Source: an uncultured bacterium
GTDB taxonomy: Bacteria > Muiribacteriota > UBA9980
DNA length: 64,000 nucleotides
Assembly (NCBI GenBank): GCA_964421195.1
Contig: CAYQWL010000003.1
Span: forward strand, 74-64,073
Reading direction: 5' to 3'
Part shown: in pieces, positions 38,754 to 64,000 of the stretch
Layout of the letters: every line of letters starts with the position of its first letter
Position numbering within the stretch: the stretch's first letter is position 1
Position numbers and translations under genes: made by a program
The notes under the pieces: model-generated
The model's database searches: none
Seen by the model: the letters and a program-made list of their open reading frames with translations, nothing else
Told to the model about the DNA's origin: nothing

Positions 38754-38770
38754 TGAACGGAGGTTAAATT

Positions 38771-39292: not shown

Positions 39293-39332
39293 ACCGGAAT
39301 CATTCATAATAAAAAATAGCGAGAGGTGAAAT

Positions 39333-42248: not shown

Positions 42249-42283
42249 AAACTTGACTATTATAGTAACGATGGTGGTATAAT

Positions 42284-43120
42284 ATGAGTATGGTCGGAAT
42301 AACGGAAGAAGAATTTAAAACTATAAGCGGATTTGTCTATGATAAATTCGGAATAAAGCTCGGCGATCAAAAGAAGACTTTGATCATCGAACGGCTTCAA
42401 AAAATATTACGCACCGGCGGGTTCGATAGCTTCAAACAATATTTTGAACACATCATCAGCGAACCCACCGGAGAAGCCATTCTCACTTTCATAGATAAAG
42501 TATCCACACATCATACATTTTTTTTCAGAGAAAACGACCATTTCGAGTTTTTAAGTAACCACGCGCTTCCTTATTTACTCGATAAATGCACACGCTCCGG
42601 AGAAAGCCCCGACATTAGAATCTGGTGCGCCGGCTGCTCTTCGGGCGAAGAGCCTTACACCGTCGCTATATGCGCAAACGAATTCATCCAGAATAATAAA
42701 TTAAAAATTTCAGATATATCCATCCTCGCCACCGATATTTCAGTCACATCCATATCCAGAGCGTCAAACGGCATATATCCGGCCGCATCGCTCGCCCATG
42801 TTCCGCCGCTGTACAGGCAAAAATATTTCACGCCGGGTCAGGAAGGCGAATTTATAATAAAACCTTTTTTAAAAGACATTATCTTATTCAGACGCCTTAA
42901 TTTAATGCGCGAAAATTATCCATTTAAAGGGCGCTTCGATATAATTTTCTGCCGCAACGTAATGATCTATTTCGATTCGCCCACGCGCGCGGCGCTCATA
43001 AATCGATTCCACCATTATACTAAAGATGGAGGTTATTTATTTATAGGCCATTCAGAATCCATAAACAGAACGACTTCCATTTATAAATATATTAAACCGG
43101 CGGTTTATCAAAAATTATAG
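42284..43120 (+). CDS. cheR: chemotaxis protein methyltransferase CheR
   Basis: An N-terminal helical domain is followed by a SAM-MT fold with IRIWCAGCSSGEEPYTVAI and FCRNVMIYFD motifs. Confidence 0.85.
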   Translation: MSMVGITEEEFKTISGFVYDKFGIKLGDQKKTLIIERLQKILRTGGFDSFKQYFEHIISEPTGEAILTFIDKVSTHHTFFFRENDHFEFLSNHALPYLLDKCTRSGESPDIRIWCAGCSSGEEPYTVAICANEFIQNNKLKISDISILATDISVTSISRASNGIYPAASLAHVPPLYRQKYFTPGQEGEFIIKPFLKDIILFRRLNLMRENYPFKGRFDIIFCRNVMIYFDSPTRAALINRFHHYTKDGGYLFIGHSESINRTTSIYKYIKPAVYQKL

Positions 43121-43252
43121 CAAAATAATATATTAATGCAATGGTTGTAATGTAGTGCATTATGGTGTAAATACAGATATTATATTATGTAGCATAATAA
43201 CCGCACCGCATTATTGTGATGAATACAACATAATTAGTAATAAAAAATAAAA

Positions 43253-44317
43253 ATGCTTATGAATGAAAAACGAATAAAAGTCTTAATAATAGATGATTCA
43301 GCGTTGGTCCGCGAAATCCTTTCAAAAGGGCTCGCGCTCGACAAAGAGCTCGAAATAGTCGGAACGGCTTCCGACCCTTTTATCGCTCGCGATAAAATCA
43401 TTGAATTAAAACCCGATGTTTTAACGCTCGATGTTGAAATGCCGCGTATGGACGGGGTCGAATTTTTAAAAAAACTAATGCCGCAATACCCGCTTCCGGT
43501 AGTAATCGTAAGCGCATTAACTAAAAAAGGCGCCCGGATAACTTTAGAAGCTTTTGAAGCCGGCGCCGTCGAAGTCGTTACCAAACCTTCAAGCGATGTC
43601 GCCCGCGGCCTTACCGCCATGCTCAACGATCTTCGGGCCAAAATAAAAATAGCCGCCGGCACTAACGTATCGGCATGGAAAATAAATAAAAAACCCTCCG
43701 CCGTTATTAAAGCCGACAGTAAAGCGCTTGCCGAATCAACCGATAAAGTAATAGCGATAGGCGCTTCTACAGGCGGCACGGAAGCTATCCGTAAAATTTT
43801 AAAAACTTTTCCAGCCTCGATGCCGGGCGTAATTATCGTTCAGCACATGCCGGCTGGTTTTACGGCGCATTTCGCCGAAAGTCTCAACGCGAACTGCGCT
43901 ATGGAAGTTAAAGAGGCCGTCCATGGCGACCGCATTATGCCCGGCAGAGTGCTCGTAGCGCCAGGCGGCGAAAAACAATGCAGAGTTTTACGTTCCGGCG
44001 GTATTTATATAGCCGATTTAAAACAGGGCGAAAAAGTATGCGGCCATTGTCCGTCGGTAGAAGTAATGTTCGAATCCGTCGCTAAATACGCAGGAGCTAA
44101 CGCTATAGGAATCATTCTCACGGGTATGGGAAGCGACGGCGCCGGCGGAATGCTTATGATGCGTCAGGCGGGTGCGCGAACCATAGCGCAGGACGAACAG
44201 AGCTCGGTGGTTTTCGGCATGCCGAAAGTAGCTTATGAACGCGGCGGCGCCGAAAAATTAGTTCCGCTTTCAGATATAACGCAACGGGTTATATCTATTT
44301 TAGAAGGCCGCGAATAA
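43253..44317 (+). CDS. cheB: chemotaxis response regulator protein-glutamate methylesterase CheB
   Basis: REC domain (VLIIDDSALVRE...VLTLDVEMPRMDG) plus a methylesterase domain with IAIGASTGGTEA and HMPAGFT motifs. Confidence 0.9.
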   Translation: MLMNEKRIKVLIIDDSALVREILSKGLALDKELEIVGTASDPFIARDKIIELKPDVLTLDVEMPRMDGVEFLKKLMPQYPLPVVIVSALTKKGARITLEAFEAGAVEVVTKPSSDVARGLTAMLNDLRAKIKIAAGTNVSAWKINKKPSAVIKADSKALAESTDKVIAIGASTGGTEAIRKILKTFPASMPGVIIVQHMPAGFTAHFAESLNANCAMEVKEAVHGDRIMPGRVLVAPGGEKQCRVLRSGGIYIADLKQGEKVCGHCPSVEVMFESVAKYAGANAIGIILTGMGSDGAGGMLMMRQAGARTIAQDEQSSVVFGMPKVAYERGGAEKLVPLSDITQRVISILEGRE

Positions 44318-49395: not shown

Positions 49396-50136
49396 TTATT
49401 TTTCGTGGCGGGAATTTTTATAATCGCTTTCGACTTCCATAATATGTTTATAAGCATTAGCAGCGGATATTTGCTCGGCCTCTTTTCTGACTCTGGCCAT
49501 ACCGGTTCCAAGCTGAATTTCATTTATTTCAACGGCCACTATAAATGTTTTGTCATGTTCAGGGCCGAGAGTTTTAATAAGCCGGTAATCAGGCTTGACT
49601 CCGTAATTTTTTAAAGCATACTCCTGAAGAATGGATTTATGGTTTACGCCTTCGTCTTTACGGGTAAATTTCACTATTTCCGGATAAAGATTATGTATAA
49701 CAAATTCATAAGCGAAATCAATTTTTTTTGAATCGAGATAAATAGCCGAAACTATGGCTTCAAATACATCCGCAAGTATCGACGGCTTGTTTTTACCGCC
49801 GTTTTGTTCTTCACCCCTGCCCAATTGTATATATTCATTGATATTAATTTTAGCCGCGGCCTTCGCCAGAGCAGCTTCAGACACTACAAAATTCTTTATT
49901 TTCGAAATTTCGCCTTCTTTTAACTCCGAATTCGAATTAAACAAAAAATCGACCACGATAAAACCGAGAAGAGAATCACCAAGTACTTCGAGCCTCTCGT
50001 AATCGTAATCGATTTTATGTTCATTCGCGAACGAAGCGTGCGTTAACGCTTCGTTCAATAAAGACAGATCGTTAAATTTATAATTTAAATTGCATTCAAA
50101 AGTATGAAGCGTGGTTCTTCTTATAAAATCATCCAT
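49396..50136 (-). CDS. rnc: ribonuclease III
   Basis: EALTHASFANE...ERLEVLGDSLL is the RNase III signature. A C-terminal dsRBD is present. 246 aa. Confidence 0.9.
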   Translation of the reverse strand: MDDFIRRTTLHTFECNLNYKFNDLSLLNEALTHASFANEHKIDYDYERLEVLGDSLLGFIVVDFLFNSNSELKEGEISKIKNFVVSEAALAKAAAKININEYIQLGRGEEQNGGKNKPSILADVFEAIVSAIYLDSKKIDFAYEFVIHNLYPEIVKFTRKDEGVNHKSILQEYALKNYGVKPDYRLIKTLGPEHDKTFIVAVEINEIQLGTGMARVRKEAEQISAANAYKHIMEVESDYKNSRHEK

Positions 50137-50142
50137 TAACGG

Positions 50143-51381
50143 TTAAACGTATTTCTTCAAACAAATCGTAGCATTATGACCGCCGAATCCGAATGAATTC
50201 GAAATAGCGAAATTAATTATCCGTTCTTTAACCGTATTGGGTGTATAATCGAGATCGAGTTCGGGATCGGGATTAATATAATTAATCGTCGGCGGTATTT
50301 TATTTTCTTTAATAGCCATAGCGGAAGCTATAGCCTCGACCGCCGCTGCCGCTCCAAGTAAATGGCCCGTCATGGATTTAGTCGAAGAAATAGACACTTT
50401 CTTCGCATAATCGCCAAATACCGCTTTAATAGCCATAGTTTCGTATTTATCGTTAAGATCGGTCGATGTTCCATGAGCGTTTATATAATCGATTTTATCA
50501 GGTTGTATCCGGGCTTCTTTTAAAGCGAGCTGCATACATTTAATCGCGCCCGCGCCGCTGTCGCTCGGAGCGGTTATATGAAACGCGTCACAGGTTGCGC
50601 CATATCCAATAATTTCGGCATATATTTTAGCGCCGCGCGCTTTCGCGTGTTCTAACTCTTCGAGTATCAAAACCCCGGCTCCCTCGCCGATAACAAAACC
50701 ATCGCGGTCTTTATTAAAAGGACGCGACGCGGTTTTAACGTCGTCGTTTCTCTGTGAAAACGCACGCAGCGAAGAAAAACCGGCATAAGTCAGCGGAGTG
50801 ATAGCGGCTTCCGAGCCGCCTGTAAACATTATATCCTGGGCCCCTCGTTTAATAGTTTCAAAAGCCTCGCCGATAGCATGATTTGCAGACGCGCAGGCCG
50901 TAACCGTAGTAAAGTTAACGCCGCGCGCGCCTAATTGAATGGCGATCTGCCCGGCGGCCATATTTCCTATCATCATCGGCACTAAAAGAGGCGAAACGCG
51001 TCCAGGTCCTTTAGCTTTTAAAACCTCGTACTGCGCTTCAAAAGTCTGTATTCCGCCGATACCCGAACCGAGAATAACGCCAAGCATATCCCGGTCGATG
51101 GAATCGAGATTAATGCCCGAATCAGCGAGCGCCATTTTAGCGGCCGCGACGCCGAATTGAGTAAAACGGTCCATTCTTTTAGCGTCTTTTTTTTCTATAA
51201 ATTCTTCGCAGTTGAAGTCTTTAACTTCAGCCGCCATTTTTGACGAATAATTCGTTATATCGAAGGCTTTAACCACATCCACGCCATTAGCGCCGGTTAA
51301 AAGGCCGTTCCAGAATTTTTCGAGACCGGTTCCGATAGGGCTTACTACGCCCATACCTGTTATTACCACCCTGCGGGACAT
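50143..51381 (-). CDS. fabF: 3-oxoacyl-[ACP] synthase II
   Basis: 412 aa KAS II. Active-site Cys is in TVTACASANHAI and the His/His are in YINAHGTST and GHLLGAAAA. Confidence 0.9.
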   Translation of the reverse strand: MSRRVVITGMGVVSPIGTGLEKFWNGLLTGANGVDVVKAFDITNYSSKMAAEVKDFNCEEFIEKKDAKRMDRFTQFGVAAAKMALADSGINLDSIDRDMLGVILGSGIGGIQTFEAQYEVLKAKGPGRVSPLLVPMMIGNMAAGQIAIQLGARGVNFTTVTACASANHAIGEAFETIKRGAQDIMFTGGSEAAITPLTYAGFSSLRAFSQRNDDVKTASRPFNKDRDGFVIGEGAGVLILEELEHAKARGAKIYAEIIGYGATCDAFHITAPSDSGAGAIKCMQLALKEARIQPDKIDYINAHGTSTDLNDKYETMAIKAVFGDYAKKVSISSTKSMTGHLLGAAAAVEAIASAMAIKENKIPPTINYINPDPELDLDYTPNTVKERIINFAISNSFGFGGHNATICLKKYV

Positions 51382-51491
51382 CTTATCGTTTCCTCCAATC
51401 GTTTTTTACGCTCATCAAATAACATAGCCCGATTATCAATCATATACCGGAAGGTAAACATTGATAAAAGGGCTATCAAGTCGTTCTATGA

Positions 51492-51749
51492 TTAAGCTTT
51501 TGCTTTCATTATATATTCTACGGCCTGATGAACGGTCCTGATTTTTTCAGATTCATCATCAGGTATGTTAATGTCGAATTCTTCTTCGAGCTTCATTATG
51601 ATTTCAACTAACGCTAACGAATCAGCGTTGAGATCTTCCTGAAAATTAGATTCTTTTTTTATCGATGATTCTTCGACACCCAGTTCTTCGACAGCTATTT
51701 TTACCACTTTTTCATAAACGCTTTCGTAGGTAAGACTCACTTGCGTCAC
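51492..51749 (-). CDS. acpP: acyl carrier protein
   Basis: 85 aa with the phosphopantetheine-attachment motif DLNADSLALVEIIM. Confidence 0.85.
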   Translation of the reverse strand: MTQVSLTYESVYEKVVKIAVEELGVEESSIKKESNFQEDLNADSLALVEIIMKLEEEFDINIPDDESEKIRTVHQAVEYIMKAKA

Positions 51750-51754
51750 CCCCT

Positions 51755-52486
51755 TTACATATACATTCCGCCATCTATAGTTAAAACCTGGCCCGTTATG
51801 TAAGACGCCTTTTCGGACGCTAAAAAAACGCAGGCAGACGCCACGTCTTCAGCTTTGCCAAAACGCTTCATAGGTATTTGTTTTTGATATTCTTTTTTTA
51901 TATCTTCACCGAGAGCGGCGGTCATATCGGTTTCGATAAAACCCGGCGCTACGGCGTTTACTCGAATACCGCGAGATCCGTATTCTTTAGCGATAGATTT
52001 GGTAAGTCCAAGCATTCCGGCCTTGGATGAGCAATAATTAGCCTGACCGGCATTTCCCATAAGGCCTACGACCGAACTTACGTTTACGATCGCCCCGCCG
52101 GCGCGGCCCATTACTTTTATAGCATTTTTGCAGGTAAGAAAACATGAATTCAAGTTTGTATTAATGACTTTTGTAAAATCTTCAAAAGTCATTCTTAAAA
52201 GTAACTTATCATTGGTTATACCTGCATTATTAATTAACACATCAAGACGATTATATTTATCTTCGAGCTGCTTAAACAAAGCCGTAACTTCCGTTTCGTT
52301 CGTAACGTCGCATTTAACGGCAAGAGCCTGAACTCCATACGTTTTTAATTCATCGATAACGCCGTCAGGCACGCTCGAATTATATGTAAAAACTACATCA
52401 TAACCGGATTTAGCGAATTCAAAAACTATGGCTTTTCCAATGCCGCGCGCGCCACCGGTTATTAAAGCGACTTTTCTACCTTCCAT
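51755..52486 (-). CDS. fabG: 3-oxoacyl-[ACP] reductase
   Basis: SDR with TGGARGIGKAI, NNAGI and the YCSSKAG catalytic motif. 243 aa. Confidence 0.9.
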   Translation of the reverse strand: MEGRKVALITGGARGIGKAIVFEFAKSGYDVVFTYNSSVPDGVIDELKTYGVQALAVKCDVTNETEVTALFKQLEDKYNRLDVLINNAGITNDKLLLRMTFEDFTKVINTNLNSCFLTCKNAIKVMGRAGGAIVNVSSVVGLMGNAGQANYCSSKAGMLGLTKSIAKEYGSRGIRVNAVAPGFIETDMTAALGEDIKKEYQKQIPMKRFGKAEDVASACVFLASEKASYITGQVLTIDGGMYM

Positions 52487-53459
52487 CGGTCATATCTCCC
52501 ATACGAGTATTTTCGAGAACTTCGAGAGTTTTTTCAAAAGTTTTTATATCTTCAATATTAAGAACGTTAATTTCACGATTTATCTTTCTTACAAGGCCCT
52601 TCAATACAGTTTTAGGCCCGAGTTCTATCATGGTGCGCACACCCATATCGTAAAGCGCGTTAACGCAATTCACCCATAATAAAGGCTGATAAATTTGACG
52701 AATAATAGCATCGGCTATAGTAGCAGTATCGTCGGTAAGATTACCGGGAACATTCATCGCTATCGGATAATCCGGCTGATAAAAATTAATTTCTTCCATA
52801 GTCTTCATAAGATTATCAGCCGCACCCTTCATTATATTCGAATGGAAAGCGCCGGAAACTGAAAGTGGAAATACCGATGCCCCTTCGGCTTTAGCTTTTT
52901 CGCCGGCCGCACGGACGCCCTCGACGGTTCCCGAAATTACAATCTGTTCAGGCGAATTAAATATAGCGACTGCAACATAATTACCCGATTCAGTGATTTC
53001 AAGACATAATTTATCGAGCTGCGGCTTTGTCATTCCCACTATCGCCGACATGGTGCCGTTCGTATTCTGGCCGGCTTCATGCATAAATTTTGCCCTGTTA
53101 TAAACAAATTTCAAGCCATCGGCGAAAGAATAGACATTCGCCGCGCATAAAGCGCTATATTCGCCAAGGCTATGGCCCGCTACGGCCGCCGGAACAATTT
53201 TTTTACCGTTGATTTCACGGGCGGTCAATAATCTATGGCATGCAGCCGACATGGTGTAAATCGCAGGCTGCGCATTAATGGTCTGCGTCAAAACTTCGTT
53301 CGGCGCTTCAAAGCACATTTTAGCAAGGTCATAGCCTAAAACCGACTGCGCTTCGTTAAATACATCGCGCACTTCGTTATATGCCGCATAAAGTTCGGCG
53401 CACATTCCACTGTACTGAGAACCCTGGCCTGGAAATATAAAAGCAATCCTGTTATTCAT
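52476..53459 (-). CDS. fabD: malonyl-CoA:ACP transacylase
   Basis: IAFIFPGQGSQYSGM and the GHSLGEYSAL active-site Ser motif. Confidence 0.9.
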   Translation of the reverse strand: MNNRIAFIFPGQGSQYSGMCAELYAAYNEVRDVFNEAQSVLGYDLAKMCFEAPNEVLTQTINAQPAIYTMSAACHRLLTAREINGKKIVPAAVAGHSLGEYSALCAANVYSFADGLKFVYNRAKFMHEAGQNTNGTMSAIVGMTKPQLDKLCLEITESGNYVAVAIFNSPEQIVISGTVEGVRAAGEKAKAEGASVFPLSVSGAFHSNIMKGAADNLMKTMEEINFYQPDYPIAMNVPGNLTDDTATIADAIIRQIYQPLLWVNCVNALYDMGVRTMIELGPKTVLKGLVRKINREINVLNIEDIKTFEKTLEVLENTRMGDMTDGR

Positions 53460-53560
53460 GATAATCCGGTAAAACTCCCTTCGTAAGTATCGCGCACATT
53501 ATGCGCGGATAAAAACCGCGGCTGTGCTGTAAAACTGCATAAAAAAAGCAAGACCGGGGA

Positions 53561-54565
53561 TTAAAAAAGCCCTGCTATGTCCTGCTTTATTTTTTCATTG
53601 ATTTTTTCGGCTACGAATTTTTCAGCCACGCCAATCGCGTTTTTAATAGCCTTAGCCCGCGAAGAGCCGTGTGAAATAATACACGTTCCCGGAACGCCGA
53701 GCAGCGGAGCGCCGCCATATTCGGCATAATCTAATTTTTTCTGCATATCGTCTATTACTTTCATAACCGGGCCGCCCCGGACGGTCTGATCGTTCGAGCC
53801 ATGCATATCTTTTTCTGAAGCGGCGCTTATAATTTTTTTCGCGGTCGATATAATCATTTCACATGTCGATTCAATGCTTTTAAGCATTATATTACCGGCG
53901 AACCCATCGCACACGATAACATCGCACATATTTTTAAAAACGCTCGAACCTTCTACGTTGCCTATAAAATTTAACTTAGAGTTTTTTAACAGCCCGAAAG
54001 TTTCGAGCGTGAGTTTATTTCCCTTACGATCTTCGGTGCCGTTAGAAAGCAGGCCGATTCGCGGGCTTTTACGGCCGAATATACGCTCGCTATAAATAGA
54101 GCCCATAATGGCAAATTGATAAAGATTTAAAGGTTTACAATCAGCCGTAGCTCCGGCATCGATTAATATCACCTCGCCATGCGGCGTGGGTATAGGCGTT
54201 GGAATGGCCGGCCGGTCGATACCGTCGATTTTTTTCCAGTTAATAACCGCGGCGGCCATACAGGCGCCTGTATTTCCAGCCGAAACATAAGCGTCGGCGG
54301 CATTTTCTTTTACAAGATTACAGCAGGCCGCGATGGTATTTTCACGCGAACGGGAAACCGGGCCGTCGTTAAATGAAATCACCCCGGTAACATGATGGAT
54401 CGATAAATTAGAAAGCTCTTTATAACCTTCGACTTTTTTAATCGCTTCTTCATCGCCGACTAAAATTATTTCAATGCCCGCCGAATTTTCAGCGGCCCCG
54501 ATTGCGCCTTTAACGATCTGTTCCGGAGCATAATCGCCGCCCATTGCATCAACCGCTATTTTCAC
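53561..54565 (-). CDS. plsX: phosphate acyltransferase PlsX
   Basis: MKIAVDAMGGDYAPE N-terminus and a conserved PlsX core. 334 aa. Confidence 0.9.
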   Translation of the reverse strand: MKIAVDAMGGDYAPEQIVKGAIGAAENSAGIEIILVGDEEAIKKVEGYKELSNLSIHHVTGVISFNDGPVSRSRENTIAACCNLVKENAADAYVSAGNTGACMAAAVINWKKIDGIDRPAIPTPIPTPHGEVILIDAGATADCKPLNLYQFAIMGSIYSERIFGRKSPRIGLLSNGTEDRKGNKLTLETFGLLKNSKLNFIGNVEGSSVFKNMCDVIVCDGFAGNIMLKSIESTCEMIISTAKKIISAASEKDMHGSNDQTVRGGPVMKVIDDMQKKLDYAEYGGAPLLGVPGTCIISHGSSRAKAIKNAIGVAEKFVAEKINEKIKQDIAGLF

Positions 54566-54627
54566 AAAGACCCTTCCCTTATATTAAATTTTACTTCAAA
54601 AAAGCAAAAACAGGCCTGACTATAAAT

Positions 54628-54828
54628 TTACTTTTTTTCCTTAATTTCAATAACTTTTTTTCCGCCGTAATTACCGCATGCAAGGCATACATGATGAGGA
54701 AGAACCGGTTGTTTGCATTCAGGATTAGAGCAAACTGAAATAGTTTTAGCGGTTTCTATTCTTTTCGACCATACCGCTCTGTCACGTCTGTTTCTGGTTT
54801 TACTATGTTTATGCTTTGGATTAGGCAT
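54628..54828 (-). CDS. rpmF: 50S ribosomal protein L32
   Basis: 66 aa. MPNPKHKHSKTRNRRDR N-terminus and a C4 zinc motif (CSNPEC...CLACG). Confidence 0.85.
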   Translation of the reverse strand: MPNPKHKHSKTRNRRDRAVWSKRIETAKTISVCSNPECKQPVLPHHVCLACGNYGGKKVIEIKEKK

Positions 54829-54865
54829 AATTCACTCTCCTGTCAAATTAATTTTAGGTCAGTAA

Positions 54866-54895
54866 ATTATATAATAAAAATCATTCAATTGTCAA
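54866..54895 (-). promoter_or_regulatory. candidate sigma70-type promoter for rpmF-plsX-fab operon (TTGACA - 18 nt - TATAAT on minus strand)
   Basis: The minus-strand sequence reads agttcTTGACAattgaatgatttttattaTATAATttact, divergent from the pel promoter. Confidence 0.3.
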
Positions 54896-54953
54896 GAACT
54901 GTTTTTATTTGTTTTTTATTTTATAAAAAATTATTATCTTCAAAACTTAATCG

Positions 54954-54982
54954 TTGACATTAAATTGTTGTTAATGTATTAT
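54954..54982 (+). promoter_or_regulatory. candidate sigma70-type promoter for the pel-like locus (TTGACA - 17 nt - TATTAT)
   Basis: TTGACA at 54954-54959 and TATTAT at 54977-54982, about 120 nt upstream of the first pel-locus ORF. Confidence 0.4.
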
Positions 54983-55102
54983 AAGCATGTTTATTTAGTT
55001 TATTATATTTTTATTTTTATTAAACACTTATTAAATACAATAATACATCAATACAAATAATGGTGCGATAACGCATCAAAAAGGCATCATGAATATAACG
55101 CA

Positions 55103-56248
55103 ATGCAGTTTAATATTTTTTATTTATTTTTAAACGGATATTTCAAAGCGCGGCAAACCGGAAGCGAAGTAACCCTGACACCAAAAACTAATATCAATTT
55201 AACATTTTTAGCCAATCGTTTCTGGCGGTTTTTAATTATTTCGCCGGGAATGTATTTTTTATTTTTATGTTTTTTACTTTATTTTACCATAATGCCGGAT
55301 CGCGGCTCCGCATTCGCTCAAAATAATTTTCATTCTGACCTTTTCAACGATGTCAATTCTTATGCTAACGCTTATGGAAATTATAATACAAAAGCGCTTA
55401 ATAAATTTTTAAAATTCGATCTGATTATTATAGAACCGTACAATGTACCGGATATCGATTTTTTAAAAAAACTCAAAAAAAAGGGGATTAAAATCATAGC
55501 ATATATAAGCGTCGGCGAAGCCGACTATAACAGACGTTATTTAAAAAACTGGCGTTCTTATCACAACACTCCCGATAACCCGAATATTCCACGTTCAAAA
55601 ATCAGCCCCGGCAACGCCGTTTTTTTAGGCGAAAACCCTGGATGGCCGGGATCGTATTACGCAGACACATCAAATGAAAAATGGCATAATATAATATTAC
55701 GCGAAGAACTTCCTTACATTTTATGGCTTGGAGGAGGCATATATGACGGTTTTTTTCTTGACGTTCTCGATGCGGCCGAAGTTTATAAAACAAAAAATAA
55801 CGGACATGAAATGACGAACGGTCTTATAAAACTCATTAAGAAAATCAAAGAAACTTATCCTGATAAAATTTTAATAGCAAACCGCGGATTCTCTATTTTA
55901 AAAGAAATCGCCCCTTATATAGACGCTCTTAAATATGAAGAATTTACCTCCGCTTATGGAAATATAAAAAATGAAGCGCATTATAAAAAATATTATTTAA
56001 AAATCGATAAAAAAGGACGCCGTATTAATTCAGACGAAATCGAAATTATTAAAGAAGCGCTGAAAATAAACCCGCGAATACTCATACTTGTTTTAGATCA
56101 CATAAAAACAAAACCACGCAATATAAAAATCGCAAAACTTTGCTTTCGAGAATCTCAAAAATTAGCCGATAATTTAAATTGTAAGGTTTTATGGTACGCC
56201 AATGCGGTGGAGCAGGATCTGCCGCTCTGGCCGGAATTCAAAAAATAG
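55103..56248 (+). CDS. GH114-like (PelA hydrolase-domain-like) putative exopolysaccharide glycoside hydrolase, secreted or membrane-anchored
   Basis: FDLIIIEPYNVPDIDFLKKLKKKGIKIIAYISVGEADYNRRY resembles the Glyco_hydro_114 TIM-barrel core of PelA_h and TM1410. A hydrophobic N-terminus is present. The alternative start at 55250 (MYFLFLCFLLYFTIM...AFA) would give a signal peptide. Confidence 0.5.
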   Translation: MQFNIFYLFLNGYFKARQTGSEVTLTPKTNINLTFLANRFWRFLIISPGMYFLFLCFLLYFTIMPDRGSAFAQNNFHSDLFNDVNSYANAYGNYNTKALNKFLKFDLIIIEPYNVPDIDFLKKLKKKGIKIIAYISVGEADYNRRYLKNWRSYHNTPDNPNIPRSKISPGNAVFLGENPGWPGSYYADTSNEKWHNIILREELPYILWLGGGIYDGFFLDVLDAAEVYKTKNNGHEMTNGLIKLIKKIKETYPDKILIANRGFSILKEIAPYIDALKYEEFTSAYGNIKNEAHYKKYYLKIDKKGRRINSDEIEIIKEALKINPRILILVLDHIKTKPRNIKIAKLCFRESQKLADNLNCKVLWYANAVEQDLPLWPEFKK

Positions 56249-56363
56249 CGGCCTTCCGGCAATATCTAACAAATTAACCACGCCGCATCGTTCCATTTAT
56301 AAACTCAAGGATTTTTCAAGGATTTTAATGTAGCTTTTTAACATGAATTATGATATAATTCAT

Positions 56364-56400
56364 AGGTTACATTTATCGATTATGTTACAGGTTACATTTA
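56364..56400 (+). promoter_or_regulatory. 12-nt direct repeat AGGTTACATTTA x2 upstream of pelD
   Basis: Exact copies at 56364-56375 and 56389-56400, 13 nt apart, in the 295-nt gap between the pelA-like gene and pelD. Confidence 0.3.
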
Positions 56401-56543
56401 CGATAAAATTAGTAAACTTTTAAAAAAATATAATAATAATTAAAAAAATATGATAATAAGTGCCATAATTAAAAATATGCATAAAATAATGCATTTTATT
56501 ATTAAACAGATTACGACCAGAACTAGAACGAGAGACGCAAGAA

Positions 56544-57944
56544 GTGTATCTAATAGAATCCGTTATATTTTCGGTATTTATTGCCGCTATAAATTACTTT
56601 TATTATCCATTGTCTTTTTTATTTATTGGAGACGCGGCCAATCCATACCAGATTTTATCAATATGCATGGCGGTAAGATACGGCTCATCTAAAGGCTTTT
56701 TTTCTTTTATCATTATAATTTCAATGGCTATAACGGCTGGAACTTTAAACAGCTCGGCTGATAGGCTATTACAAAACGAATCGATATATTTCATGCTTTC
56801 GGTACTTCTTACAACGCATATAGCGGGACAATTAAAAGATCATCAGGACTATCAATATAACCGCCTTAAATCGAAACACGAAAAATTATCGGCCGATTTT
56901 GAAAAATGCGCGCTCAATAACCTTATGCTCGAAGACGCCAACAAAGAGCTCACAAAAAAAATAGTAACCCGCTTTCAATCGCTTTCGACGGTTTATGAAG
57001 CGGCAAAAAGGCTTGAAACCCTCGATTACGATAAATTATTCCCTGCGGTGCTTCAAATACTCGAAAACCATATAAACGTTAAATCAGCGGCGTTTTACAT
57101 AAGAGAAAACGAACAACTTATTTTAAAAGCCGTTTCGGGTTCGTTCGGCGAAGAATTAGAAAATCGAATTAATATTTCAAGCCGCGCTTTATTCAATTAC
57201 GTCATAAAAAACAAAAAAACCATTTCATTACTTGACGACCTTCTATTAAACGAATCGTTGCCGGACAAAAAAGAATTCGAACGTTTTACCGCCGTATCGC
57301 CCGTTATATTCAATGACGTAATTTATGGAATTATCGCCGTGAAAGACCTTTCCTTCGATAATTTAAACGACACGTCGATAAGGATGATCTCCATGGTCGC
57401 CGAATGGGCCGGAATGTGCCTTAATAAAATCAATAATTTTACTCAAATCGAATCTGAAGTTCCGTTCGACCAAAAAATAAAATGTTATAAACCCGGCCAT
57501 TTAAAGCAATTAATAAAATCAGAAATATATAAAGCCGTAAGATATAAGCTCGAATTATCAATATGCAAAATCAGTATAATTAGTAATGATGTTATACCCG
57601 ATAATATTAAAACTTCGGTATATTTTTCTATAGGTTATATAATTAAAAATTCGATAAGGGAAATCGATATTTACGGCGCGTGCATGCAAAACGGATGTTT
57701 TATAATAATACTTCCGGTAACGGATATAAAAGGGGCGGGCGTTCTTCTTTCACGTTTAATCTCCGAAATTAATAATTTTAAAATAAAGCCGTATCACACC
57801 GACGAAGAGTTACATTTCGAAGCGAGCGCTCATTCGCTTGATGAAATAGCCGGCGGCAAAAAAATCGAAAAAATGACTTTAGGAAATTTAAACGAAGAAT
57901 CATATAAAATTTACAAAAAAATGATAGAGTATATAAACATTTAA
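56544..57944 (+). CDS. pelD: PelD-like c-di-GMP receptor (N-terminal TM helices, GAF domain, degenerate GGDEF domain with intact RxxD I-site)
   Basis: About 4 TM helices are followed by a GAF-like region. The C-terminal IREIDIYGACMQNGCFIIILPVTDIKGAGVLLSRLISEI aligns to the GGDEF domain C-terminus, with QNGCF replacing GG(D/E)EF and an upstream REID (RxxD). It sits next to pelF and pelG homologs. Confidence 0.7.
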   Translation: MYLIESVIFSVFIAAINYFYYPLSFLFIGDAANPYQILSICMAVRYGSSKGFFSFIIIISMAITAGTLNSSADRLLQNESIYFMLSVLLTTHIAGQLKDHQDYQYNRLKSKHEKLSADFEKCALNNLMLEDANKELTKKIVTRFQSLSTVYEAAKRLETLDYDKLFPAVLQILENHINVKSAAFYIRENEQLILKAVSGSFGEELENRINISSRALFNYVIKNKKTISLLDDLLLNESLPDKKEFERFTAVSPVIFNDVIYGIIAVKDLSFDNLNDTSIRMISMVAEWAGMCLNKINNFTQIESEVPFDQKIKCYKPGHLKQLIKSEIYKAVRYKLELSICKISIISNDVIPDNIKTSVYFSIGYIIKNSIREIDIYGACMQNGCFIIILPVTDIKGAGVLLSRLISEINNFKIKPYHTDEELHFEASAHSLDEIAGGKKIEKMTLGNLNEESYKIYKKMIEYINI

Positions 57945-57985
57945 GGTAAAATACGTCAAATACATTTTCATGGTGGCCATAATTA

Positions 57986-60160
57986 ATGCTTCAGGATAAA
58001 ATTTATTATACATCAATATTTACATGGCTTTCGATAATGATGTTATTCGTTATTTTTTCGCTTTTAACAGGGCTGCCCCCGGCGGATATTTTTATTACGC
58101 GATTTATTTTGATTAACACAGCGGGAGCTATTATATTCCTGCTGACATACGAGTTAATATATTCGTTAAATTTTGATTTTAAAGACGAAAACAATTTCAC
58201 AAAAAAAGATCTCACTTTTTTATTTCTTCTTATATTCGGTCCGGCGGGTTTATTACCGGTCAGCTTCATAATTCTCGCCTGCCTCGACAAACCTTCAAGA
58301 AATTTCGATACTATTATGACTGAAGACATAATTAAAGAGACAATTAAAACATCTTTTAATTATATAGACGTAGCGGCTGAATATCAAAAACAGATGTTTA
58401 AAGAAGCGGTTATCGACTCGATAATGTCGGAAAATAATTTCAAAAAAAGAAACGCCATCGACATATTATCGAAAATGAAAAACAGACAGGCGATAGCCGC
58501 GCTAAAATTAATGGCAAAAGACAAAGATCATGAAATAAGATTTATGGCCATAAATAAACTTAACGCGATAGAAGACGAATACATGCATGAATTCGACTGG
58601 TACAAAACCGCTATAAAAGTATGCGGCGCGGTTCCCGAATTAGTCTTTCAATACGCGGCGCTTATTTTAAAATTTTGCCGCCTTGAAATAATGTATAACG
58701 ATCTTTCTTATTTATATTATAAAAAAGCGGCCGGCCTTTTTAAAGCGCTTATCGATGAAAATCATTACCCGGACGAATCTTTATACGCTTATGCGGTATG
58801 CCTCCGAAATACGTCAAATGCATCCGGCGCGGCGGCGCTTCTTGAAAAGCGCCTTAACGAATTAAGCGGCAAAGCCGTCGATGAACTTGCCGCATGTTAC
58901 TACGACATAAAAAATAATAACGGACTGAAATATTTAATCGATAAAGCCGGAAAAAATGAAATACAATACGGCCCGAAACTTGGAGGCATAATTTCTAAAA
59001 ATACCGACGAAAAGTCAGAAAACGACGAATACGACGGCAGCGGCAATGAAAACTCCAGTCAAAATGAATTATACAGTATTTACAATATAAACGAATTTCT
59101 TCAAATATTTAAAAGCTGCCAGAATCTAAATTTCGACCAATATTACGCGCGCCTTAAAACGGTAACAAATACAGCCATGTATCCCGCTATTTTTAATGAA
59201 ATTTACAAAATGCCAAAATTTTCTAAAATATTATATTTAAAGCTGTTGAAAGGTCAGCTCGAAACGGAAAACGCAAGAAATTTAAAATATTTTTTATATG
59301 ATCCCGACCCGGCGCTCGTTTTTTTTGCCGCCGATGTATTATGCACCACGGAATTACCTCTGCGCAATGAAATATTTACAGGCCTTATTTTACATCCGCT
59401 CGACGAAGTAAAAATACTGTCAGTAAAATTTGCCGGTTTGAAAAGAATGCGCAGAACCGTCAGACTTCTTATAAAATTATTAAAATCTTCAAAAACGCAA
59501 CCGCCTCTAAAAAAAGAAATAATTACCGCCCTGATTAAAATAGGCGATAATTATGCTAATTCAGCAATATCCGCGGGTTTAAAAAACGATGAAGATCATT
59601 TTAAAATTCATGCGCTCAACGAAATTAAAAATTTTAACGCCCGTTTATTTCTCGACGATATCATTCAATTAATAGATTCATCGCCGATCGCCATTAAAAT
59701 CGCCGGTTTGAACGCAGCCGCTTCTTTTGGAGGCGAACAGGTTTTTAAAAAATTAACGCGCTATCTTAAAGATGACTGCGATGATATTTTACGCGAAGCG
59801 GCAACCGCCGAATTCTGCCGTGCGATGCGTCCTGAAGCCATAGAATGCGCCGTTAAATATTATTCCCGCGCGGCGGATAATAAAAAAATCGAAATTTATA
59901 ATAATTATTTTTCTTATTTAAGTAAAACCGCCATAGAAAATTATATAAAAAAATTAATAGATTCAAAAAATTATATCGGAAATGATTTTTTAAATATAAT
60001 TTTTAAATTTCGTCATGAGCTTGTATCATCCATAGCGGAAAATAATAAAAAAGAAGATAACGCTTTTTACGAATATTGCGAACAATTCATAAGCCGGCCA
60101 AAAATAAAACCGAACAAAGATATGCCTGCAGGCGCAAAACCGGGTGAGCGCAATGGCTGA
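57986..60160 (+). CDS. PelE-like membrane-anchored TPR/HEAT-repeat protein (enlarged, 724 aa)
   Basis: Four predicted N-terminal TM helices are followed by ~600 aa of alpha-helical TPR/HEAT-like repeats (KLMAKDKDHEIRFMAINKL..., DPDPALVFFAADVL..., DILREAATAEF). Lies between the pelD and pelF homologs. Confidence 0.5.
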   Translation: MLQDKIYYTSIFTWLSIMMLFVIFSLLTGLPPADIFITRFILINTAGAIIFLLTYELIYSLNFDFKDENNFTKKDLTFLFLLIFGPAGLLPVSFIILACLDKPSRNFDTIMTEDIIKETIKTSFNYIDVAAEYQKQMFKEAVIDSIMSENNFKKRNAIDILSKMKNRQAIAALKLMAKDKDHEIRFMAINKLNAIEDEYMHEFDWYKTAIKVCGAVPELVFQYAALILKFCRLEIMYNDLSYLYYKKAAGLFKALIDENHYPDESLYAYAVCLRNTSNASGAAALLEKRLNELSGKAVDELAACYYDIKNNNGLKYLIDKAGKNEIQYGPKLGGIISKNTDEKSENDEYDGSGNENSSQNELYSIYNINEFLQIFKSCQNLNFDQYYARLKTVTNTAMYPAIFNEIYKMPKFSKILYLKLLKGQLETENARNLKYFLYDPDPALVFFAADVLCTTELPLRNEIFTGLILHPLDEVKILSVKFAGLKRMRRTVRLLIKLLKSSKTQPPLKKEIITALIKIGDNYANSAISAGLKNDEDHFKIHALNEIKNFNARLFLDDIIQLIDSSPIAIKIAGLNAAASFGGEQVFKKLTRYLKDDCDDILREAATAEFCRAMRPEAIECAVKYYSRAADNKKIEIYNNYFSYLSKTAIENYIKKLIDSKNYIGNDFLNIIFKFRHELVSSIAENNKKEDNAFYEYCEQFISRPKIKPNKDMPAGAKPGERNG

Positions 60161-61631
60161 TATATGTCTGATACTCGAAGGCACATATCCTTATATAACC
60201 GGAGGCGTATCGAGCTGGATACACGATATAATAACAAACCTCGATGATTTTACCTTCGATATTATAGCGATTTTACCTTCTAAAAATTATGTACGTGAAT
60301 ATAAATTTAAAATACCGCCAAACGTAAATACAATAAATAACCTTTATTTAAACGAAATAAATGATGAATCGAATAAAATATCAAGCTCTATTAAAAATCA
60401 AAATTTTTTTAATGAATTATCGGCATGTTTCATCGGGCAAAAAGAACTTAAATTAAATGAATTAAGCTCTATCGTTAATATTTTCGATAAATATAAACCA
60501 TCTCTCGGAGATTTTATAAATACAAAAGAAGGATGGAATTTTTTTTTAAAATTATATGAAACTTTCGATCCTGATTTTTCATTTATAGATTTTTTCTGGA
60601 CTACGCGTTTTATATTAGTTCCTATAATCAACATTATAAATTTTATACCGCCTGACTGCAAATGTTTTCACAGCGTTTCTACAGGCTATGCCGGCCTGTT
60701 AGCGGGACTTTCGCGGCTTCGTTTTAAAAAACCGCTTCTATTAACCGAACATGGTATTTATACGAATGAAAGGCTCCTCGAAATAATCAATGCCAGATGG
60801 ATATATGATCAGCATATAGATTCAATAGATATCAGCCGTGATCTATCGCCGCTAAAAAGATTGTGGATAAATCTTTTTATCTATATAGGAAAAATTACCT
60901 ATTACTGTTCTGACAAAATAATAACGCTTTTTAAAGAAAACATGCGGCTTCAAATTAAATTAGGCGCGCCGGCCGAAAAATGCGTAGTAATACCTAACGG
61001 CATCGATTGCGCGCGTTTTAACCAGAAAAGAACTAAAATACCATCAGCGCCTGATTATACGGTAGGTTTCGCGGGAAGAATAGTTCAAATTAAAGATATT
61101 AAAACCCTGTTATACGCCGCCAGATTTGTTATCGACAGACTGCCCGGCGCGAAATTTATATTAAAAGGGCCGATCGATGAAGAAAAATCATATTATAAAG
61201 AGTGCCGCGTGCTCGCCGAATTGCTTAACTTAAATAACGGAGTAATATTCGCGGGGCCGGGAGACGTAAGCGGTTTTTATAAAGATATAGATCTCTTAGT
61301 ACTTTCTTCCATTTCAGAAGCTCAACCGCTCGCGCTTTTAGAAGCTAATTTATGCAAAGTGCCAGTAGTTTCGACAGATACAGGCGCCGTGCGCGAACTC
61401 ATTTATGGAGCTGATGAAGAAGATGCCAGAATAGGCCCGTCAGGCGCCGTAGTACCCGTTAAATCACCCGAAGCGCTCGGCTTACAAATTATTAAATTAT
61501 TGACCGAACCCGATACGAACATCAAATTCGGAGAAAACGGAGAAAAAAGAGTAATGCGTTATTATAAAAAAGAAGATTTAATAAATAAATACCATAAAAT
61601 ATATAGTGAATTAATAGAGGAGCGCGATTAA
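60144..61631 (+). CDS. pelF: PelF-like cytoplasmic GT4 glycosyltransferase
   Basis: The N-terminus ADICLILEGTYPYITGGVSSWIHDII matches the PelF-specific N-terminal domain as recalled. The C-terminal GT4 E-x7-E region is PLALLEANLCKVPVVSTDTG. 495 aa. Confidence 0.8.
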   Translation: MSAMADICLILEGTYPYITGGVSSWIHDIITNLDDFTFDIIAILPSKNYVREYKFKIPPNVNTINNLYLNEINDESNKISSSIKNQNFFNELSACFIGQKELKLNELSSIVNIFDKYKPSLGDFINTKEGWNFFLKLYETFDPDFSFIDFFWTTRFILVPIINIINFIPPDCKCFHSVSTGYAGLLAGLSRLRFKKPLLLTEHGIYTNERLLEIINARWIYDQHIDSIDISRDLSPLKRLWINLFIYIGKITYYCSDKIITLFKENMRLQIKLGAPAEKCVVIPNGIDCARFNQKRTKIPSAPDYTVGFAGRIVQIKDIKTLLYAARFVIDRLPGAKFILKGPIDEEKSYYKECRVLAELLNLNNGVIFAGPGDVSGFYKDIDLLVLSSISEAQPLALLEANLCKVPVVSTDTGAVRELIYGADEEDARIGPSGAVVPVKSPEALGLQIIKLLTEPDTNIKFGENGEKRVMRYYKKEDLINKYHKIYSELIEERD

Positions 61632-61632
61632 A

Positions 61633-63117
61633 ATGGCGGGAATAGGGTTCAGATTTCGTGAAATAGCCGAAAACGGAAGCTATCTCGGCGCCGTAAAAAG
61701 CTATGCTTATTCTTCAATTTTCGCGGCGGGGCCGTGGATACTGACCATGATCACCATATCCGCGTTAAACGCCATAGCGCCTCCCGAAATAAGCGGAACC
61801 ACATTGCTCGAATTCCGCGCGCTTCTTTCATACATTTTTTCATTCAGCCTCATTCTTACCGGAACTTTTCAACTCGCGATAGTAAGATATATTGCAGATA
61901 AAATTTCCGACAAAGACCGCGAAGAACTATTATCGCTTTTCATAGGCACTAACTTTTTTTTCTCAATTTTATCCATAACATTCGGCGCATTTTTCTTTTC
62001 AGGCACGAACGGCTCCGCAATTTTAAGAATAACGGCGATAATGCTTTTTTGCGTAATCTGCCTTATATGGAACGGAATGGCTTTTTTAACCGCTATTAAA
62101 GATTATAAATTCATAATTTTCGTTTTTTCTTCCGGAACAATCGCTTCTATAATTTTATGCGCATATCTAAAAAATATTTATGGTTTAAATGGATATCTAT
62201 TCGGATTTTTTCTGGGACAATTATATGTTTTTTCAGGAATCACCGCCGAAATAACCCGCGAATTTTTTAATAAAAAAGGAGTAACCTATTATTTTTTCGG
62301 CTATTTTAAAAAATATTTTATTCTAATTATCGCGGGACTCGCTTATAATACCGGAATCTGGATAGATAAATTTATAATCTGGAATTCGGCTGAAAACCAG
62401 TGTTATCTTGGAAATTTAAGAGTATCGGGTAATTTCGATCTGGCGGTTTTCGTGGCATACTTATCCATAATACCCGCGCTTGGATATTTTTTCGCCCGAA
62501 TCGAAACCGACTTTTACGATCTTTATAAATCATATTTTAATTCAATATTTAATAAAGACAGCTTTCAAAAAATAAATCAAAAAAAAGATGATATTATAAA
62601 AATGGCCGACGAATCGATATTAAATCTCATTAAAATACAGGGAACACTGACTTTATTATGCTATTTAAATGCCGATATCATAATGAAACGGTTCGGAGGA
62701 GGAGGCGATGCCGTCTGCGCTTCCATTTATAAATTAGCCGTAATAGGAGTATTTTTTCATATTTTATTTTTATTTTTAACTATTTTTATGATGTATTTCG
62801 AATTTTACAGAGCCCTTTTAACGGCCAATTTATCTTTTTTAATACTCAACGCCGCGCTCACCCGGTATGCGTTATGTTATGATTACAATCCGGCGGCGGG
62901 CTATACGGTGGCGGCGGGCATATGCTGTTTACTTTCTTTTTTTCTTTTTCATTATAAAATTAAAGATCTTCCATTTTATACCTTCGTAGAACAACCGATA
63001 ACTCCGGCGCTCGAAGAAAAAGCAGTATTCGATGCTTTTAAAACCCTTGAAACGGCGGGCATCAAAAACGTATGTAAATCAGAAACGCTCAAAGGAGTAA
63101 ATATAGATGAGCTATAA
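61633..63117 (+). CDS. pelG: PelG-like polytopic membrane protein (MOP/MATE-like exporter family)
   Basis: MAGIGFRFREIAENGSYLGAVKSYAYSSIFAAGPW matches the characteristic PelG N-terminus (MAGIGFEL...). About 12 TM helices. 494 aa. Confidence 0.8.
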   Translation: MAGIGFRFREIAENGSYLGAVKSYAYSSIFAAGPWILTMITISALNAIAPPEISGTTLLEFRALLSYIFSFSLILTGTFQLAIVRYIADKISDKDREELLSLFIGTNFFFSILSITFGAFFFSGTNGSAILRITAIMLFCVICLIWNGMAFLTAIKDYKFIIFVFSSGTIASIILCAYLKNIYGLNGYLFGFFLGQLYVFSGITAEITREFFNKKGVTYYFFGYFKKYFILIIAGLAYNTGIWIDKFIIWNSAENQCYLGNLRVSGNFDLAVFVAYLSIIPALGYFFARIETDFYDLYKSYFNSIFNKDSFQKINQKKDDIIKMADESILNLIKIQGTLTLLCYLNADIIMKRFGGGGDAVCASIYKLAVIGVFFHILFLFLTIFMMYFEFYRALLTANLSFLILNAALTRYALCYDYNPAAGYTVAAGICCLLSFFLFHYKIKDLPFYTFVEQPITPALEEKAVFDAFKTLETAGIKNVCKSETLKGVNIDEL

Positions 63118-64000
63118 AAATAAAATTATATTATTATTTACACTATTTGAATTATCATCGGTTATATTTTTTTCCGCCGTCCCGCTTCGCGGCGAAGACA
63201 GTATTTACAGACAAAACGAATTAAACATAAGCCTCGATATAAAAAACGCTCTTTCAGATTATAAAAGTGCGGCGCAAACCGCTTTATATGCAGGTTCTCT
63301 TGAAATCGCCCTTAAATTCGGCAAAAAAAGTCTTGAAACAAAAGCGGACGACACAGCTACGGTTCTTATAGTGGCGCAGTCTCTCTTATGGACTTCGAAA
63401 GCGGACGAGGCGGAAAAATATTATAAAAAATACTTCAAACTAAAAGGAACGAAAACTGCTTCTATTTATTATCAGTTTGCCGAATGTCTTAATTCATCCG
63501 GCAAAGCCGATAAGGCTTTGCATTACTTTAACGAAGCCATGAAATTAGCCGGCACGGACGAAACGGAACTTAAAGGCAATATCAATATCGCTAAAGGTTA
63601 TTATTATCTCGAAAAAAACGATTTTATAAAAGCAAAAAATTATTTTTACAGCGCTCTTAAATATGATCTCAAAGCGAAATATCTTGAAGCGATGGGCGAT
63701 TATCACGTCAAATTAGCGGCCGTACAAATTCCTGAAATTTATTTCGATATCGAAACGAAAACCATAATTAAAAAATATTCAGATAAAGATACCAGGCGCG
63801 CTTATGATTATTATAAAAGAAGCCTGAACGAAAAACCCGATAATAAATACATTAAAATTAAAATAAGCGACGCGCGCTGGGCGCTCGGCAAAAAGAAACA
63901 GGCGGTAAGCCTGATGCGCGCCGCGGCGGACGAAACTTTATCTAACTACGCCTTTAGCAGGCTTTCATATTTTTTAAAAGAAGAAAATAAAACAAACGAA
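63107..64000 (+). CDS. secreted TPR-repeat protein, 3'-truncated by the window end (candidate PelB-like N-terminus)
   Basis: Read manually as 63107 ATG (AAGGAG RBS 8 nt upstream, 11-nt overlap with the pelG end) to 64000 with no stop. It shows MSYKNKIILLFTLFELSSVIFFSAVP (signal-peptide-like) followed by TPR-like helical repeats. It is absent from the ORF track because it lacks a stop. Confidence 0.45.
   Translation, partial: MSYKNKIILLFTLFELSSVIFFSAVPLRGEDSIYRQNELNISLDIKNALSDYKSAAQTALYAGSLEIALKFGKKSLETKADDTATVLIVAQSLLWTSKADEAEKYYKKYFKLKGTKTASIYYQFAECLNSSGKADKALHYFNEAMKLAGTDETELKGNINIAKGYYYLEKNDFIKAKNYFYSALKYDLKAKYLEAMGDYHVKLAAVQIPEIYFDIETKTIIKKYSDKDTRRAYDYYKRSLNEKPDNKYIKIKISDARWALGKKKQAVSLMRAAADETLSNYAFSRLSYFLKEENKTNE

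Follow-up and report, generated by a model that had tools for sequence, protein, structure and literature searches.

How is a Pel-type exopolysaccharide made, modified and carried across the cell envelope in a bacterium that is neither a Pseudomonas nor a Bacillus? Pel is among the most widespread polymers of the biofilm matrix and its inner-membrane synthase is well conserved; to our knowledge, little is understood, beyond these two genera, of the polymer's modification and its passage through the envelope. The question is raised by a stretch of 64,000 nucleotides from an uncultured low-GC lineage (contig CAYQWL010000003.1; hereafter the window), in which six consecutive open reading frames (ORFs) on the + strand, at 55103-64000, form a Pel-type synthase-dependent exopolysaccharide locus. 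A preliminary description of this DNA had placed here five consecutive + strand genes of Pel architecture and a TPR ORF running off the window; all six ORFs were found as placed, and the Pel assignment held, both in matches to Pel-specific models and in the presence of a deacetylase gene downstream. Profile and structural comparisons place PelF, PelG, PelD, the N-terminal half of PelE, the hydrolase PelA_H and the deacetylase PelA_DA in their respective Pel families. The locus looks functional, and we consider it very probable that it works in the general way proposed below.

The inner-membrane core and its predicted cyclic di-GMP site

A PelG-based scan together with contig look-ups yielded nine related loci (L001-L004, L011 and L013-L016; L012 duplicates L011), all from uncultured bacteria, one of which is labelled Candidatus Wallbacteria. 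Every related locus that is long enough has the genes D-E-F-G, then a gene for a TPR protein of 940-1080 amino acids, then one for a PelA-like deacetylase of 783-805 amino acids, after which the operon ends. This order is conserved in at least eight loci (L001, L002, L003, L004, L011, L013, L014 and L015).

PelF matched the NCBIfam equivalog NF038011 over its full length (residues 6-487) with 425.6 bits, against a cut-off of 100, and Pfam recognized in it both the N-terminal DUF3492 domain (E 3.8e-76) and Glycos_transf_1 (E 7.5e-24). Its identity to annotated PelF proteins is 33-37%. PelG aligned with all 452 positions (1-452) of Pfam PF16933 at E 1.1e-107 and 361 bits, where the threshold is 29. 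Both proteins thus match Pel-specific models and not just generic GT4 or MATE families. On this basis the identities of PelF and PelG are secure, PelF being the predicted GT4 glycosyltransferase and polymerase of the system and PelG a predicted polytopic inner-membrane protein of the exporter type.

The PelD-like protein was not matched by Pfam PelD_GGDEF and gave only sub-threshold GAF matches. The same Pfam model matched none of 64 distant PelD homologues, sampled from 5208 relatives found in an exhaustive HMMER search, and Bacillus cereus PelD has likewise been overlooked by general sequence tools (PMC7112168). We compared the window's PelD clade with a reference profile of PelD proteins from annotated pel loci of B. 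thailandensis, Pseudoalteromonas, Azonexus, Azospirillum and Cetobacterium, taken from plasmid records, and obtained an alignment of 376 columns (hhalign probability 99.5%, E 2.3e-23). Multi-locus profiles were needed for such comparisons: single-sequence hhalign runs against B. thailandensis PelD, PelE and PelB were too weak. A profile of the PelD clade, run against the PDB, failed to retrieve P. aeruginosa PelD by sequence. An AlphaFold2 model of PelD (predicted local distance difference test score, pLDDT, 75.5) comprises helices at the N-terminus, one long helix, and GAF and GGDEF-like domains, and Foldseek matched it to GAF-GGDEF cyclases and to P. aeruginosa PelD (4etx, 4dmz and 4dn0; E ~1e-8). 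The PelD call of the preliminary description therefore failed against the Pfam model but was borne out by the profile of annotated PelD proteins, with the I-site kept.

This I-site, R372-E-I-D375, precedes the GGDEF position, which reads QNGCF, and the third arginine is R404. All three residues, R372, D375 and R404, are invariant in the PelD clade, and they align with R367/D370/R402 of P. aeruginosa and R363/D366/R395 of B. cereus, which are required for binding of cyclic di-GMP (c-di-GMP; PMC7112168). Among the 64 distant homologues, R372 and D375 are conserved in at least 90%. We also considered whether these transmembrane-GAF-GGDEF homologues might be active cyclases, and rejected this, since GGDEF or GGEEF is absent from all 64. 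Judged by these residues, the PelD relatives are a large family of degenerate receptors that keep the I-site. These results suggest that PelD of the window is a membrane-anchored protein with a GAF and a degenerate GGDEF domain and that it acts as a c-di-GMP receptor.

The PelE-like protein, whose gene lies between pelD and pelF, has three hydrophobic helices in its N-terminal part. Its residues 144-337 align with the entire soluble part of a canonical PelE profile built from six sequences (hhalign 94.6%, E 7e-8, 185 columns). Whereas canonical PelE has about 330 amino acids and no HEAT extension, PelE of the window has 724, and its further ~390 residues are HEAT repeats (Pfam HEAT_2, 63 bits), of which residues 456-607 match alphaRep/HEAT proteins in the PDB (E 6e-29). 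The extension is kept in every relative examined and may serve as a cytoplasmic docking platform. The domains that the preliminary description had assigned, namely transmembrane segments with GAF and degenerate GGDEF domains in PelD, transmembrane segments with helical repeats in PelE, and a hydrophobic segment with TPRs in the last ORF, all agree with what we found.

Two separate PelA-type enzymes

The first gene of the locus encodes a protein that scored 41.9 bits against Pfam GH114 (PF03537), above the gathering score of 27, in keeping with the earlier GH114-like call. A sequence search of the PDB returned TM1410 (E 2e-5) and PelA (9cgy, E 5e-5; 5tcb, E 1e-3). In profile comparisons, the protein aligned with the hydrolase domains of three canonical full-length PelA proteins (hhalign 98.7%, E 2.6e-16) and with stand-alone, pel-linked endo alpha-1,4 polygalactosaminidases (hhalign 99.5%, E 4e-22). 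The hydrolase motifs GEAD138, FFLDVLD217 and YEE278 could be located, and the catalytic glutamate, placed by where the alignments end, would fall in YEE278-280. Membership of the GH114 family is secure, and we regard the protein as a PelA_H-like hydrolase, predicted to be an endo-alpha-1,4-N-acetylgalactosaminidase. Because its one N-terminal hydrophobic segment sits at residues 43-61, translation may really begin at the ATG of position 55250.

A GH114 gene precedes pelD just in the closer relatives (L001/L013, L003 and L014). In L002 and L004, the two most distant of the related loci, the ORFs upstream of pelD were considered as GH114 homologues and rejected, with 17-19% identity and with resemblance to an RND pump or to no known protein; the hydrolase gene is therefore linked to the locus in closer relatives only. 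Upstream of pelD, L002 (274-4602) encodes a pair of RND efflux proteins (AcrB family, E 2.7e-289) and L004 (1157-4694) a 760-amino-acid TPR protein and a 445-amino-acid protein without Pfam matches.

The second PelA activity is encoded elsewhere. As the preliminary description had noted, the window contains neither a deacetylase nor a PelC gene; the deacetylase is nevertheless not missing from the organism, since its gene was located downstream in relatives, and also on a contig that is apparently the organism's own. The last gene in eight related loci encodes a PelA-like protein without a hydrolase domain, PelA_DA, whose profile matched P. thermotolerans PelA (PDB 9cgy) over residues 272-756 at E 1.1e-55. 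An AlphaFold2 model of PelA_DA (pLDDT 91.7; predicted template-modelling score 0.89) was aligned with 9cgy by Foldseek at E 6.5e-43 over 705 columns with a TM-score of 0.66 and, in the structural alignment, 21% identity to PelA; the runner-up, at 8e-6, was 37 orders weaker. H280, D282, D284, H351, H355, E480 and H518 correspond to PaPelA H526, D528, D530, H600, H604, E723 and H761, to which the roles of catalytic base, metal triad, catalytic acid and helpers have been assigned (bioRxiv 10.1101/2024.06.28.601253). Across 70 homologues, there is no variation at D282, D284, H351 and H355, and conservation is at least 90% at H280, E480 and H518. At its C-terminus, PelA_DA has a hydrophobic helix and, after it, a tail rich in Lys and Arg; the prediction is therefore of an inner-membrane anchor, with most of the protein lying outside the cytoplasm.

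A copy of PelA_DA that we take to be the window genome's own, P0018, keeps HIDGDGF, SHSWYHPF and the C-terminal anchor. It was assigned to this genome because the NCBI contig that carries it is 68,991 bases long, as is the contig that bears the window's PelD (P0001, 100% identical). The deacetylase gene appears to be the final gene of the operon, just past the end of the window. P0018 is called about 137 amino acids shorter at the N-terminus than its orthologues, although the gene is expected to be internal to the contig, and the deacetylase gene of this genome might therefore be damaged; a frameshift, an assembly error or the choice of start codon could each account for the difference. If a frameshift in pelA_DA were real, the locus might be decaying in this genome and no longer functional, and its GC content (0.35, versus 0.39 for the remainder of the window) would fit such a history. 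However, the window's six ORFs are all intact and translationally coupled and have the full length of their orthologues, P0018 retains its catalytic motifs and anchor, and an assembly error or a different start codon can shorten a gene call. We regard decay as very improbable, and a working locus as the better account.

The retention of both PelA-type enzymes suggests that the product is a partially de-N-acetylated alpha-1,4-GalNAc polymer. A different polymer, with another sugar or linkage, could also be made by machinery derived from Pel, in which case the name would be chemically wrong. The low identities of PelF and PelA_DA to their counterparts would fit this, as would an exporter unrelated to PelB, the extra domain on PelE and the lack of a linked galE: neither galE nor a diguanylate cyclase gene was identified adjoining the locus. 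Against it, both polymer-specific enzymes are kept, the esterase has all its catalytic and metal-binding residues, and Pel chemistry has so far been conserved from Pseudomonas to Bacillus (PMC7112168). Two genes of the UDP-sugar epimerase type also lie elsewhere in the window. A chemically different product is thus improbable, and we retain the Pel-type polymer as the expected one.

The TPR protein as a candidate exporter

In synthase-dependent systems the standard exporter is a protein with TPRs and a C-terminal barrel. The truncated last ORF of the window encodes an N-terminal hydrophobic segment followed by TPR_12, TPR_19 and TPR_8 matches above the Pfam gathering scores. A homologue search with this 298-amino-acid fragment found none; full-length orthologues were obtained from seven of the related loci, and L016 gave a C-terminal fragment. 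These orthologues end in a beta-rich domain of about 320 amino acids. In profile-profile comparisons with canonical PelB, they reached an hhalign probability of 2% over the full length and 0.1% for the C-terminal 340-360 residues, and the C-terminal domain had no match in Pfam, NCBIfam or the PDB. Of the earlier label "PelB-like", the architecture stands as regards the hydrophobic helix and the TPRs, the sequence similarity to PelB does not, and the porin domain is a prediction.

That prediction comes from the character of the C-terminal domain. Over the last ~320 amino acids, G, S, T, N and Y together make up 35-43% of residues, compared with about 26% upstream, and A, L, E and K 25-29%, compared with about 45%. 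The ratio of beta to alpha hydrophobic moment exceeds 1, a trait shared by three canonical PelB controls in their porin domains, and there are at least 11 conserved dyad-repeat segments of alternating hydrophobicity. The protein terminates in ...YLKYYLKL or ...YLHKF, an alternating hydrophobic strand typical of outer-membrane barrels. Because composition, beta periodicity, dyad segments and last strand all point to a barrel, we treat the TPR protein, with moderate confidence, as a functional analogue of PelB and not as a member of the PelB family. We lean, on balance, towards the view that the outer-membrane export step would pass through it.

The same protein may, alternatively, be no pore at all. 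In an otherwise Pel-like system it could be a periplasmic or membrane-anchored scaffold whose beta-rich domain is soluble and perhaps binds carbohydrate, and the polymer would then stay cell-associated or exit by an unlinked route. Its lack of similarity to PelB or any porin family is consistent with this, as is the lack of a PelC partner, and the case for a pore draws only on composition, beta periodicity and the hydrophobic C-terminal strand. Against a scaffold speak the G/S/T/N/Y-rich composition, the PelB-like moment ratio, the conserved dyad repeats and the last strand resembling those of outer-membrane proteins. In addition, TPRs with a C-terminal barrel are the usual arrangement of such exporters, and an 11-nucleotide overlap couples translation of the gene to that of pelG. 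We consider a scaffold possible but doubtful, and keep the TPR protein as the candidate pore.

PelC is a lipoprotein of about 170 amino acids that is essential in P. aeruginosa. When six-frame ORFs of at least 40 amino acids were searched with a four-sequence HMM, neither the window nor any of the nine related loci yielded a PelC-like ORF (best E 0.77). In L013 (15269-15790) and L014 (15374-15865), a conserved lipoprotein of 163-173 amino acids with the lipobox FAAGC is encoded roughly 3 kb downstream of the pel genes; it has the size of PelC and no PelC similarity (E ~1), and shows a weak match to the FxLYD domain.

Together, these components suggest the following sequence of events. c-di-GMP would bind the retained I-site R372/D375/R404 in the degenerate GGDEF domain of membrane-bound PelD, and bound PelD would activate an inner-membrane complex comprising PelD, PelE, PelF and PelG. 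PelF, as a GT4 enzyme, would polymerize a UDP-sugar, most likely UDP-GalNAc, and PelG would move the chain across the inner membrane. Outside the cytoplasm, the separate PelA-type de-N-acetylase, held at the membrane by its C-terminal helix, would partly deacetylate the chain. The TPR protein would guide it outward, with the beta-rich C-terminal domain as the proposed outer-membrane pore, and the separate GH114-type hydrolase would trim or release the polymer. Several of the results given above weigh against this scheme: the failure of Pfam PelD_GGDEF to match PelD, the lack of any PelB or database match for the TPR protein and its C-terminal domain, the missing PelC, the short call of P0018, and the lack of an adjoining galE or diguanylate cyclase gene.

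An outer-membrane step presupposes a diderm envelope. At 2270-25378 (+) the window carries a long glycan-biosynthesis cluster that encodes GT4 and GT2 transferases, an asparagine-synthase-like amidotransferase, a nucleotidyl-transferase, dehydratase/epimerases, a DegT aminotransferase and S-adenosylmethionine-dependent methyltransferases. It also includes a Wzm/Wzt ATP-binding cassette (ABC) exporter with a Wzt_C domain (6578-8890), a sugar C-methyltransferase (10809-12035) and a GT9 heptosyltransferase-like gene (23160-24353). Its gene content suggests ABC-transporter-dependent O-antigen synthesis with a C-methylated amino-deoxy sugar. The Wzm/Wzt cluster and the GT9 gene therefore favour an outer membrane bearing lipopolysaccharide, and Wallbacteria, the only named relative, are treated in the literature as diderm Terrabacteria. 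We infer that the organism is diderm; its clade is possibly related to Wallbacteria.

Locus organization and comparison with known Pel systems

The genes of the locus are tightly packed (Table 1). pelE and pelF overlap by 17 nucleotides, pelF and pelG are 1 nucleotide apart, and the sole real gap, of 295 nucleotides, separates the GH114 gene from pelD. Two facing promoter-like sites lie upstream of the first gene. When the spacer before pelD was aligned across four loci, a TATAAT-like box and the block AAGTGCCATTTAAAAATTTTACA were found to be kept in all 4 genomes, and the other parts of the spacer were not alignable; the box and block are probably an internal promoter or operator for the genes from pelD onwards. 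Rfam gave no riboswitch or other RNA, either across the whole window at gathering thresholds or within 54850-56600 at E <= 1.

Table 1. Genes and putative regulatory sites of the pel locus, in window coordinates
Feature	Position	Strand	Length	Remarks
Facing promoter-like site	54895-54866	-		12/12 consensus matches; would serve rpmF-plsX-fab
Promoter-like site TTGACA-17-TATTAT	54954-54982	+		11/12 consensus matches; upstream of the GH114 gene; putative function
PelA_H-like GH114 gene	55103-56248	+	381 aa	
GH114-pelD intergenic spacer	56249-56543	+	295 nt	TATAAT-like box and ~23-nt block AAGTGCCATTTAAAAATTTTACA before pelD
pelD	56544-57944	+	466 aa	
Extended pelE	57986-60160	+	724 aa	
pelF	60144-61631	+	495 aa	
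pelG	61633-63117	+	494 aa	
TPR gene	63107 to beyond 64000	+	298 aa (N-terminal part)	Runs off the window

On the - strand upstream of the locus are rpmF, plsX, fabD, fabG, acpP, fabF and rnc (49396-54900). The pel locus adjoins an rpmF-plsX-fab cluster both in the window and in L015 (12471-14854), in a different relative orientation. Between the window and L015, identity is 75% for PlsX and 81% for FabD, as against 53% for PelD, 63% for PelF, 56% for PelG and 36% for PelE. Because the neighbourhood is shared and PlsX and FabD are more alike than the Pel proteins, these comparisons suggest that the pel locus has been inherited vertically within the clade, with the Pel proteins evolving faster. 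Elsewhere in the window, at 33070-44317 (+), is a chemotaxis cluster that encodes a CheY-like receiver, CheA with a fused CheW domain, CheR, CheB and two large methyl-accepting chemotaxis proteins with HAMP_2 arrays, one of which has a Cache_3-Cache_2 sensor.

As a reference for the pelABCDEFG operon of the P. aeruginosa/Burkholderia type we used L005. The locus of the window shares with it homologous PelD, PelE core, PelF and PelG in the order D-E-F-G, a conserved c-di-GMP I-site, both PelA activities (hydrolase and de-N-acetylase) and, like PelB, a large TPR protein with a beta-rich C-terminus. Unlike in that operon, PelA is split between two genes at opposite ends of the operon, and the deacetylase is membrane-anchored at its C-terminus. 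The TPR protein (940-1080 amino acids) is shorter than PelB (1164-1315) and has no detectable similarity to it; no PelC was found, and PelE is twice as long, owing to its HEAT extension. The preliminary description had already stated that the gene order differs from that of Pseudomonas, and the full order can now be given as A_H-D-E-F-G-B'-A_DA, where B' is the TPR gene.

Gram-positive bacteria as a rule have a split PelA, with the hydrolase separate from a membrane-anchored deacetylase (PMC7112168; PMC13254593). The closest parallel in this respect is the pelDEA_DAFG locus of B. cereus ATCC 10987, described in the same papers, which also combines a stand-alone hydrolase with a membrane-anchored deacetylase having alpha/beta and beta-rich domains. 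In both, general HMMs overlook the degenerate GGDEF domain of PelD, and the distance from the I-site aspartate to the third arginine is 29 residues, identical to that from D366 to R395 in B. cereus. The two loci differ in that the B. cereus deacetylase is anchored N-terminally and encoded between pelE and pelF, whereas in the present operon it is encoded last and carries its anchor at the C-terminus. A TPR exporter gene is lacking in B. cereus, whereas here a gene for a TPR/beta-rich protein follows pelG; the accessory pelA_H of B. cereus is divergently transcribed, whereas here pelA_H is co-directional and first.

The clade thus unites traits that have been described separately: an anchored, split PelA as in Gram-positive bacteria and a TPR exporter gene as in Gram-negative bacteria, with no PelC and with an exporter in which no homology to PelB could be detected. 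A PelA-PelB interaction has been described in P. aeruginosa. The combined traits therefore offer a natural test of whether export needs PelC and of whether an inner-membrane-tethered deacetylase has an equivalent of that interaction. The HEAT-extended PelE is a further module of interest. Tentatively, and with distinctly less confidence than we have in the exporter, the locus could be read as an intermediate form of Pel, with a Firmicute-like split PelA, a PelC-independent outer-membrane exporter unrelated to PelB, and a docking or regulatory function in the HEAT extension of PelE. If this were true, the outer-membrane leg of Pel export would have been invented or replaced independently, and PelA would have been split before monoderms lost their outer membrane. 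The practical value of the locus is comparative, since the organism is uncultured.

pel loci are widespread and rearranged, with their periplasmic and outer-membrane parts the most variable (PMC7112194). The preliminary description overstated the novelty, as earlier work had documented both the splitting of PelA and the rearrangement of pel loci (PMC7112168, PMC7112194). Our search of the literature found no description of the arrangement with all five features listed below, and no papers tying Wallbacteria to exopolysaccharides. A stand-alone polygalactosaminidase gene also lies beside pel genes on an Azospirillum thermophilum plasmid (NZ_CP029356.1) and in Cetobacterium somerae (NZ_CP092520.1). 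The Azospirillum order is GH114, a 755-amino-acid hypothetical protein, two TPR proteins, PelC (GNA1162), GAF/PelD, PelE, PelF and PelG; unlike the window, it keeps PelC and the A-B-C-D-E-F-G order, with the split PelA beside the PelB and PelC genes. The Cetobacterium order is GH114, GAF/PelD, DUF2194 (PelA_DA), a hypothetical protein, PelF and PelG, so that, unlike here, the deacetylase gene stands between D and E and there is no TPR exporter gene. In neither is PelE lengthened by HEAT repeats or the deacetylase encoded last.

What is particular to the locus of the window is therefore a combination: the order A_H-D-E-F-G-exporter-A_DA, a C-terminally anchored deacetylase, an exporter without recognizable PelB homology, the absence of PelC, and a HEAT-extended PelE. 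The general picture of Pel biosynthesis is unchanged by it, as the core machinery is ordinary. Set beside the known systems, the locus is a variant of the well-known Pel system, with an unusual gene order and unusual accessory proteins, and is not new in kind.

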